Assembly (NCBI GenBank): GCA_014686905.1
Contig: GCA_014686905.1_4093.1
DNA from: a phage
Direction: 5' to 3' (one strand)
DNA: 64,000 nucleotides
The position numbers were made by a program, and so were the translations under genes. Shown piece by piece: positions 63,657 through 63,747 of this stretch. Position 1 is the first letter of the stretch, and each line of letters starts with the position of its first letter. A model generated the notes under the pieces. The model ran no database searches. It saw only the letters and a program-made list of their open reading frames with translations, and was not told the origin of the DNA.

Positions 63657-63747
63657 GGAAGGGTGGCAGAGCGGTTGATTGCACTCGCCTACTAAGCGAG
63701 CAAGTGTTAGAAATAACGCTTCGTGGGTTCAAATCCCACCTCTTTCG
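63657..63747 (+). tRNA. type II tRNA with anticodon ACT (Ser-AGY-like; atypical A34)
   Basis: Acceptor GGAAGGG/CTCTTTC (two GU), anticodon arm CTCGC-CTACTAA-GCGAG, 7-bp variable stem, T-arm GTGGG-TTCAAAT-CCCAC; no CCA. Confidence 0.6.

Follow-up and report, generated by a model that had tools for sequence, protein, structure and literature searches.

The stretch of DNA analysed here, called the window throughout, comprises 64,000 nucleotides (nt) of the phage contig GCA_014686905.1_4093.1 (GenBank assembly GCA_014686905.1). It belongs to an Asteriusvirus jumbo coliphage: its last 3 kb are 99.9% identical to Escherichia phages G17, phAPEC6, Sharanji, ECO103 4-12-1 and EC22.5-2, and its Asteriusvirus relatives are jumbo myoviruses of about 350 kb. 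According to ARAGORN, the window contains six transfer RNA (tRNA) genes, among them a tRNA-Ser with the anticodon ACU (ACT in the DNA) at 63657-63748(+). This gene, tRNA-Ser(ACU), is the subject of our analysis. It encodes adenosine as the first base of its anticodon (A34) in a codon box that is split between serine (AGU and AGC, or AGY) and arginine (AGA and AGG).

A class II serine tRNA with the anticodon ACU

The Rfam tRNA model RF00005 matches 63657-63747(+) over its full length with 49.9 bits (E 1.1e-07), above the family's gathering cut-off of 29 bits. Separated into its structural elements, the sequence reads GGAAGGG-UG-GCAG...UUGC-A-CUCGC-CUACUAA-GCGAG-C-AAGUGUUAGAAAUAACGCUU-C-GUGGG-UUCAAAU-CCCAC-CUCUUUC-G. 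The minimum-free-energy fold recovers the acceptor stem (7 bp), the anticodon stem (5 bp) and the T stem (5 bp), and it gives a variable arm of 20 nt with an 8-bp stem and a GAAA loop. In the covariance-model alignment the D stem consists of G10-C, C11-G and A12-U plus G13.U, and the anticodon loop CUACUAA has the standard 7 nt with high posterior probability. Class II tRNAs are marked out by a long variable arm, and seryl-tRNA synthetase (SerRS) makes use of it. The discriminator base, at 63747, is G73, the class II tRNAs for Leu and Tyr carrying A73; the CCA end is not encoded.

A sequence-only reading of the window had described a type II tRNA with an ACT anticodon, on which ARAGORN, Rfam and the fold agree. 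Its account of the cloverleaf stands except for the stem of the extra arm, which by the fold has 8 bp and not 7. It had also named a different anticodon register or a pseudogene as grounds for abandoning the assignment. The covariance model gives no alternative register, and the signs of a pseudogene (broken stems, a low score, poor conservation) are absent, with no mismatch in any stem. In an alignment of 36 relatives (see below), pairing in the anticodon stem amounts to 97% and every one of its five pairs shows compensatory changes; because this stem covaries the register is fixed. A shifted register, in which CUA would serve as an amber-suppressor anticodon, was ruled out by the covariance model, the covarying 5-bp stem and the 7-nt loop. 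The amber-suppressor reading is rejected because, in addition to the fixed register, TAG, TGA and TAA all serve as stops: the open reading frames (ORFs) of the window end in TAA 61 times, in TGA 23 times and in TAG 3 times, at a standard-code coding density of about 87%.

The 92-nt tRNA sequence is 100% identical across 18 phage records, which, like the cloverleaf kept by the 36 relatives, speaks against a chance match. In ten genomes that we compared directly, all 92 positions of the tRNA are identical; identity falls to 74-88% in the 400 nt upstream and to 73-86% in the 252 nt downstream. The gene itself is not new, as GenBank already labels tRNA-Ser(act) in 121Q, G17 and Sharanji; it is the anticodon class that is under-recognised, and the Asteriusvirus genome papers that were examined give tRNA lists in which the anticodon is undiscussed. 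Upstream lies a promoter-like element with 10 of 12 consensus matches that ends 10 nt before the tRNA. The consensus scan is weak by itself, as the region contains as many matches as shuffled sequence; the element is conserved together with the tRNA in the 10 genomes, and its -10 hexamer is TATAAT in most of them.

The same position can be taken by the conventional tRNA. In phage E9.1 the same end of the upstream gene and the same promoter, up to the -10 hexamer, are followed by tRNA-Ser(GCT) instead of ACT, and in JP4 the order is GCT, HNH endonuclease gene, ACT, with a copy of the promoter before each tRNA. Within Asteriusvirus some genomes, including the closest relatives of the window, have ACT only, some have GCT only, and five have both. 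For Sharanji seven tRNAs and no Ser(GCT) have been reported (PMC11895373), and tRNA-Ser(ACU) is the only AGY-type tRNA of Sharanji-like genomes. One expression slot is thus open to either ACT or GCT, an indication that the two do the same job. Taken together, several lines of sequence evidence suggest that tRNA-Ser(ACU) is a live, working gene.

Phage EJP2 carries a second ACT form besides a conventional tRNA-Ser(GCT). This form has the same D arm and anticodon arm and differs in the acceptor stem, variable arm and T arm. It (L002:1500-1589) encodes its CCA end; because of an A50.C64 mismatch in the T stem and its occurrence in one record only, it is less certain to be functional than the window form. 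Descent of the ACT tRNA as a simple G34-to-A mutant of the resident phage tRNA-Ser(GCT) was ruled out, as the bodies of the two tRNAs differ throughout.

In JP4 (L041:3311-3835), UE-S1 (L047:214-738), WPEC3 (L049:214-738) and Turkey3 (L050:215-739) the gene immediately upstream of the Ser(ACT) cassette encodes an HNH homing endonuclease, and the window has a hypothetical gene of 384 nt where these Asteriusvirus genomes have the HNH gene. The tRNA region resembles a mosaic in which the cassettes are exchangeable and each brings along its copy of the same promoter.

The features are listed in Table 1. The CAU tRNA (labelled tRNA-Met), which starts 8 nt downstream of tRNA-Ser(ACU) and is probably co-transcribed with it, is 90 nt long and has a class II-like D arm. 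Its variable region of 16-18 nt (ACAGUUAAU..GACAC) is nearly invariant in sequence and forms no convincing stem. Jumbo phages of Erwinia (Kaldavass) and Xanthomonas (XbC2, XaC1) hold relatives of this tRNA with 78-84% identity, among which the acceptor, D, anticodon and T stems show compensatory changes; 121Q, JP4 and E9.1 have ordinary CAU tRNAs of 72-79 nt in the slot, and JNE01 has both kinds. At the place of tRNA-Arg(UCU), the 121Q record annotates a tRNA-Leu(taa) (L003:1122-1203) where ARAGORN calls no tRNA, which points to a further cassette swap or to a doubtful annotation. Between the two tRNA clusters lie three back-to-back ORFs of exactly 165 nt each (about 62251-62737(+)), annotated in G17 as hypothetical proteins (L001:7252-7738), which may be a tandem family of small genes.

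Table 1. Positions of the features discussed, in the window unless another record is named
Feature	Position	Strand	Evidence
Class II tRNA-Ser, anticodon ACU	63657..63747	+	ARAGORN, Rfam, fold, 18 identical records
Anticodon A34-C35-U36 in loop CUACUAA (63689-63695)	63691..63693	+	Sequence, covariance-model alignment, covarying stem
Long variable arm, 8-bp stem and GAAA tetraloop	63702..63721	+	Fold; outer 5 pairs 89% paired with compensatory changes in 36 relatives
Sigma-70-like promoter (predicted), TTGACT-17 nt-TAAAAT, TG before -10	63618..63646	+	Consensus scan, conservation
tRNA with CAU anticodon	63756..63845	+	ARAGORN; Rfam 50.3 bits
tRNA-Asn(GUU), third gene of the tRNA cluster	63850..63922	+	ARAGORN; Rfam 70.3 bits
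tRNA-Arg(UCU), cognate for AGA	62151..62227	+	ARAGORN; Rfam 62.7 bits
tRNA-Ser(UGA), other serine tRNA of the phage	62057..62146	+	ARAGORN; Rfam 60.4 bits
T4 Cd-type dCMP deaminase, mislabelled	Sharanji OR545507.1 302356-302835 (L044:2457-2936)	-	1vq2 match, family models

A diverse phage class of tRNA-Ser(ACU)

A search of IMG/VR with the pattern CTACTAA, 20-34 nt, GGTTCRAATCC gave at least 120 matches, and the counts and comparisons in this section refer to the matches listed. ARAGORN verified 92 of the 120 as tRNA-Ser(act); they comprise at least 71 distinct sequences and form at least 48 clusters that share less than 85% identity, and the closest one listed matches the window tRNA at 78% identity. 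All 12 loci that were checked pass Rfam, with 49-59 bits, and 58 of the 92 tRNAs end in G-CCA. In the alignment of 36 diverse relatives, 97.1% of the stem cells are paired, compared to 37-49% when the partners are slid. Compensatory changes occur at 23 of the 25 pairs, and none of 500 shuffles reaches the observed values. tRNA-Ser(ACU) is thus a diverse, structurally constrained phage class and not an isolated curiosity. A BLAST comparison with cultured phages found essentially no cultured carriers of two large clusters of the IMG/VR tRNAs.

How common is this class next to its conventional counterpart? A version of the pattern with any base at position 34 gave at least 120 matches, namely 106 new loci, which hold 79 verified Ser(gct), and 14 earlier loci, almost all of the ACT set. 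By an approximate estimate, in which 8 ACT loci and L005, all of them among the 14 earlier loci, appear in the best 80 of the 120 matches, ACT accounts for about 13% of the comparable AGY-type phage serine tRNAs. The class stands in for the usual GCU tRNA, and the two kinds rarely occur together: Ser(gct) is also present in only 2 of the 92 ACT loci, and Ser(act) in no GCT locus. By sequence, 69 of 74 distinct ACT tRNAs have another ACT tRNA as nearest neighbour, and the closest ACT-GCT pair in the whole tRNA sample is 82% identical. The GC content of ACT loci is always below 0.5 (median 0.38), while 14 of 62 GCT loci exceed 0.5, and AGT amounts to 17.7 per thousand codons in ACT loci vs. 11.9 in GCT loci. 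Codon usage was rejected as a discriminator between the two, as no AGT residual is left after regression on GC content (p=0.72). The contigs are also not phylogenetically independent. A ROOL RNA (323 bits), a group I intron and a permuted transfer-messenger RNA (L060:3148-3722, L060:1871-2055 and L055:3240-3518) are also present on phage contigs whose large tRNA arrays include Ser(ACT).

In 185,579 bacterial and archaeal genomes the same pattern yielded 18 verified tRNA-Ser(act) among the 120 matches listed. As 101 of the remaining matches overlap no tRNA called by ARAGORN, we took them as chance matches, and with these as the yardstick the density of tRNA-Ser(act) is about 18-fold lower in cellular genomes than in viral contigs. 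The examples in cellular assemblies, which may be chromosomal genes, prophages or mis-binned phage contigs, include contigs of metagenome-assembled genomes (MAGs) of Patescibacteria, or candidate phyla radiation (L282, L300, L308), as well as Polynucleobacter (L288, L291) and Fusobacterium necrophorum ATCC 25286 (L317). Several stand in tRNA clusters on MAG contigs, and those on the Patescibacteria contigs are found among ordinary tRNAs with no Ser(gct) nearby.

These phage data do not fit what has been stated about A34. A 2021 review states that ANN anticodons are absent from split boxes throughout, that the Ser-Arg box has A34 “universally missing”, and that the same holds for phage tRNAs (PMC8007984). 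A preprint of May 2026 calls the absence of split-box A34 tRNAs a deep mystery and finds bacterial examples only sporadically, always beside a GNN tRNA (10.64898/2026.05.15.725136).

Codon demand, charging and decoding

Codons were counted in 87 long ORFs of the window (18,488 codons) and, for the host, in 47 annotated coding sequences of E. coli K-12. With 22.8 per thousand, AGT is the commonest serine codon of the window and makes up 33% of its serine codons, vs. 4.1 per thousand for AGC. In the K-12 sample AGT and AGC stand at 9.6 and 16.2 per thousand, so that the AGT:AGC ratio is 5.6 in the window and 0.59 in the host sample and the preference is reversed. The sequence-only reading had proposed that the tRNA would read AGU, possibly as an adaptation to codon usage, and these counts support that proposal. 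Other codons are likewise enriched in the phage: GGA (12.5 per thousand in the phage and 6.8 in the host), TCA (20.8 and 4.9), AGA (9.2 and 0.9) and AAT (41.4 and 17.1) are cognate to tRNAs in the window. ACA (23.2 and 6.0) is cognate to the tRNA-Thr(TGT) that G17 and 121Q carry just past the position of the window's end, and ATA (14.2 and 3.0) counts as matched by a tRNA only if the CAU tRNA is Ile2-like.

T4- and T5-type large lytic phages carry codon-compensating tRNA sets. The mark of such a tRNA, a cognate codon that is far commoner in the phage than in the host, is found for tRNA-Ser(ACU), and an anticodon that pairs perfectly with AGU fits the codon pattern of the phage. Here, as in those phages, a tRNA cluster serves codons that end in A or U and are far commoner in the AT-rich phage than in its host. 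The T4- and T5-type sets, however, use U34 or G34. Split-box A34 has been described as absent in phages too (PMC8007984).

By the established identity rules, SerRS does not contact the anticodon, and an exchange of G34 for A should for this reason leave serine charging intact. The synthetases for Phe, Tyr, His, Asn, Asp, Cys and Ile use anticodon bases. In the same phage contigs, tRNAs with A34 for other split boxes turn up only sporadically and in several cases look malformed, which is consistent with their synthetases, unlike SerRS, reading the anticodon. In E. coli the acceptor- and D-stem elements for SerRS are G1:C72, G2:C71, A3:U70 and C11:G24, and tRNA-Ser(ACU) has G1:C72, A3:U70 and C11:G24 but a G.U pair at 2:71. 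Like E. coli tRNA-Ser(GCU) (serV) and the tRNA-Ser(GCT) of Asteriusvirus and Rak2-like phages, it is a class II tRNA for AGY codons with G73, C11:G24, a loop of the form CU-N-CUAA and U36 followed by A37. It differs from the E. coli and jumbo-phage tRNAs in having A34 instead of G34 and in a clearly different body, and it is expected to read AGU but hardly AGC (PMC11066159).

This expectation comes from engineered tRNAs. An M. jannaschii tRNA-Tyr(ACU) and a tRNA-Pyl(ACU), which share with the phage tRNA the anticodon, a CUACUAA-type loop and the use of E. coli ribosomes, were selective for AGU, were not deaminated and surpassed GCU on AGU (PMC11066159, PMC6158751). Specifically, an orthogonal ACU tRNA with a loop otherwise identical to that of tRNA-Arg2 reassigned AGU in E. 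coli at 9.4% and AGG at 0.36%, AGC and AGA being below detection, and no inosine was detected in it (PMC11066159). In an S30 extract a tRNA with a “non-native ACU anticodon” read AGU better than its GCU version (PMC6158751). The engineered tRNAs are artificial, with another body and another amino acid, whereas the phage tRNA occurs naturally and is conserved. If tRNA-Ser(ACU) misread AGA at times, it would be outcompeted there by the phage's own tRNA-Arg(UCU), encoded 1.5 kb upstream.

Genes for A34 tRNAs have persisted through evolution in other AT-rich genomes. Mycoplasma tRNA-Thr(AGU) and the Leu(AAG) and Thr(AGU) tRNAs of lactic acid bacteria also have an encoded A34 and replace the G34 isoacceptor. 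These tRNAs are unmodified and serve four-fold boxes, in which reading all four codons is harmless; in the phage case the neighbouring codons AGA and AGG specify arginine.

Could A34 be converted to inosine? The sequence-only reading had considered deamination, which now appears unlikely. The loop CUACUAA has U36 and so departs from the motif Y-U-A-C-G-A-A of the tRNA deaminase TadA, and E. coli TadA requires YUACGAA with a strict G36, single changes of the motif abolishing editing (PMC10586758, PMC12255301). With a TadA protein query (the E. coli sequence, validated by 99.4% matches to E. coli-derived records), we detected no homologue in the window (best E 0.8) and none in Asteriusvirus records at E<=1e-3. 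The Sharanji paper lists a “tRNA-specific adenosine deaminase” (PMC11895373). We rejected this protein as a TadA, as it matches T4 dCMP deaminase (1vq2) over its full length with E 5.9e-35; its best scores are against dCMP/dCTP deaminase families, and against the NCBIfam model of TadA it reaches 30 bits where the cut-off is 150. The label “tRNA adenosine deaminase” on a phage dCMP deaminase is misleading and lends no support to the formation of inosine. Together with the lack of inosine in the ACU tRNA that was studied in E. coli, these results indicate that A34 is probably not converted.

Explanations for an A34 serine tRNA

In our view tRNA-Ser(ACU) is probably a functional phage serine tRNA that supplies AGU decoding with an unmodified A34. 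It would be transcribed from its own predicted early-type promoter together with two downstream tRNAs, the transcript would be processed, and the CCA end would be added enzymatically. SerRS would then charge the tRNA with serine by way of the long variable arm and the features of the acceptor and D stems, without reading the anticodon. The host reads AGU only by G.U wobble, with a single tRNA-Ser(GCU) species. A34, most likely unmodified, would form a Watson-Crick pair with the U of AGU and add capacity for the most frequent serine codon of the phage. The tRNA would be an A34 alternative for the AGY job, in the slot that tRNA-Ser(GCU) holds in sister phages.

Several observations weigh against this account in whole or in part. 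The second acceptor pair is G2.U71, where E. coli tRNA-Ser has G2:C71. The AGT preference of the IMG/VR ACT loci is fully explained by their GC content. Moreover, because near-identical Asteriusvirus genomes carry ACT, GCT or both, codon usage cannot explain the choice of A34 over G34; codon supply explains the need for an AGY-reading serine tRNA, not the preference of some lineages for A34. The perfect identity of the tRNA across records could be due in part to a recent spread together with the adjacent HNH homing endonuclease and not to long-term selection. In addition, the anticodon stem-loop shares 14 of 17 positions with that of E. coli tRNA-Arg(ACG), position 36 being the only difference within the loop. 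Because the stem-loop is so close to this TadA substrate, some deamination of A34 keeps a small probability, and in E. coli A-to-I conversion has been inferred, in a 2026 preprint, for Phe-AAA as one split-box A34 tRNA.

Two other explanations would keep the reading of AGU and place the origin of A34 elsewhere. A34 might have been selected mainly as an escape from a host defence that targets tRNAs, for example an anticodon nuclease that recognises tRNA-Ser(GCU). Selection that depends on the host strain would fit the carriage of ACT, GCT or both by close relatives with the same codon usage better than codon supply does, and it is also favoured by the finding that GC content alone accounts for the AGT bias of ACT loci. 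To our knowledge, no nuclease targets tRNA-Ser(GCU) in E. coli, and none turned up in our analysis. A general model has been published in which changes in the anticodon loop of phage tRNAs block cleavage, but the same work treats Ser(gct) as a non-targeted tRNA (PMC10264068). As no defence or counter-defence gene was linked to the cassette in our analysis either, we regard escape from a nuclease as unlikely. Alternatively, the change from G34 to A may simply be tolerated, given that SerRS ignores the anticodon and AGU is still read, with alleles that drift and are shuffled by recombination and homing. Such a neutral exchange would agree with the promoter slot that ACT and GCT share, with the lack of a codon-usage residual after control for GC content, and with the only sporadic occurrence and often poor form, in the same contigs, of tRNAs with other split-box A34 anticodons, for which the synthetases read position 34. 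On the other hand, the ACT tRNAs form old lineages of their own, as their nearest neighbours and the distance to the closest GCT tRNA indicate, and for this reason A34 appears to be stably kept and not flickering. The restriction of ACT contigs to GC contents below 0.5, a limit that some GCT loci exceed, also speaks against neutrality, which we consider quite unlikely.

The remaining explanations concern the decoding and the activity of the tRNA itself. If host TadA or an unrecognised phage enzyme produced the anticodon ICU, the tRNA would read AGU, AGC and AGA and would insert serine at some AGA codons for arginine. The phage tRNA resembles tRNA-Arg(ACG) not only in the stem-loop identity given above but also in its gene-encoded A34 and a loop of the form CUAC-N-AA. 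Over-expressed TadA edits some sites that are one base off UACG (PMC12255301), and the Phe-tRNA(AAA) of the preprint would be a precedent in E. coli. The phage tRNA differs from tRNA-Arg(ACG), however, in having U36 instead of G36, in being of the class II serine type and in serving a split box where inosine would miscode. The strict preference of TadA for G36, the lack of inosine in the ACU tRNA whose loop was otherwise identical and which read neither AGC nor AGA in E. coli (PMC11066159), and the reassignment of the annotated phage deaminase to dCMP all stand against this explanation. Misreading would also be costly, as AGA is common in the phage. We therefore judge an inosine-containing tRNA to be very unlikely. 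Finally, the gene could be a decaying or inert tRNA-like sequence that rides with a homing-endonuclease cassette, a notion to which the upstream HNH gene of JP4, UE-S1, WPEC3 and Turkey3 and a recent horizontal spread of identical copies would be suited. Yet its stems are free of defects, it has its own conserved promoter element, and in Sharanji-like genomes it is the sole AGY-type tRNA. Moreover, the second, diverged form keeps ACT, and dozens of diverged relatives maintain the cloverleaf through compensatory changes, so that a non-functional passenger is highly improbable.

A functional serine tRNA with an unmodified A34 thus remains our preferred explanation, and it allows a further proposal that we put forward only tentatively. 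tRNA-Ser(ACU) may be a selected, phage-specific class for which the rule that split codon boxes lack A34 does not hold; its nearly AGU-exclusive decoding would favour the AGU-rich messages of the phage over the AGC-rich messages of the host, and it would possibly be immune to whatever acts on the host tRNA-Ser(GCU). For annotation, the consequence is that calls of tRNA-Ser(act) should not be dismissed as prediction errors. The gene is a natural counter-example to the absence of A34, conserved, equipped with its own predicted promoter and carried by phages that grow on E. coli K-12. It makes testable whether an unmodified A34 misreads AGA and AGG in vivo, whether TadA spares such a tRNA, and whether it gives viruses an advantage that cells cannot afford. 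If the proposal is true, about one AGY-type serine tRNA in eight from uncultivated phages would belong to the class, and the Asteriusvirus coliphages would provide a culturable model in E. coli for why cells avoid A34 tRNAs in split codon boxes.

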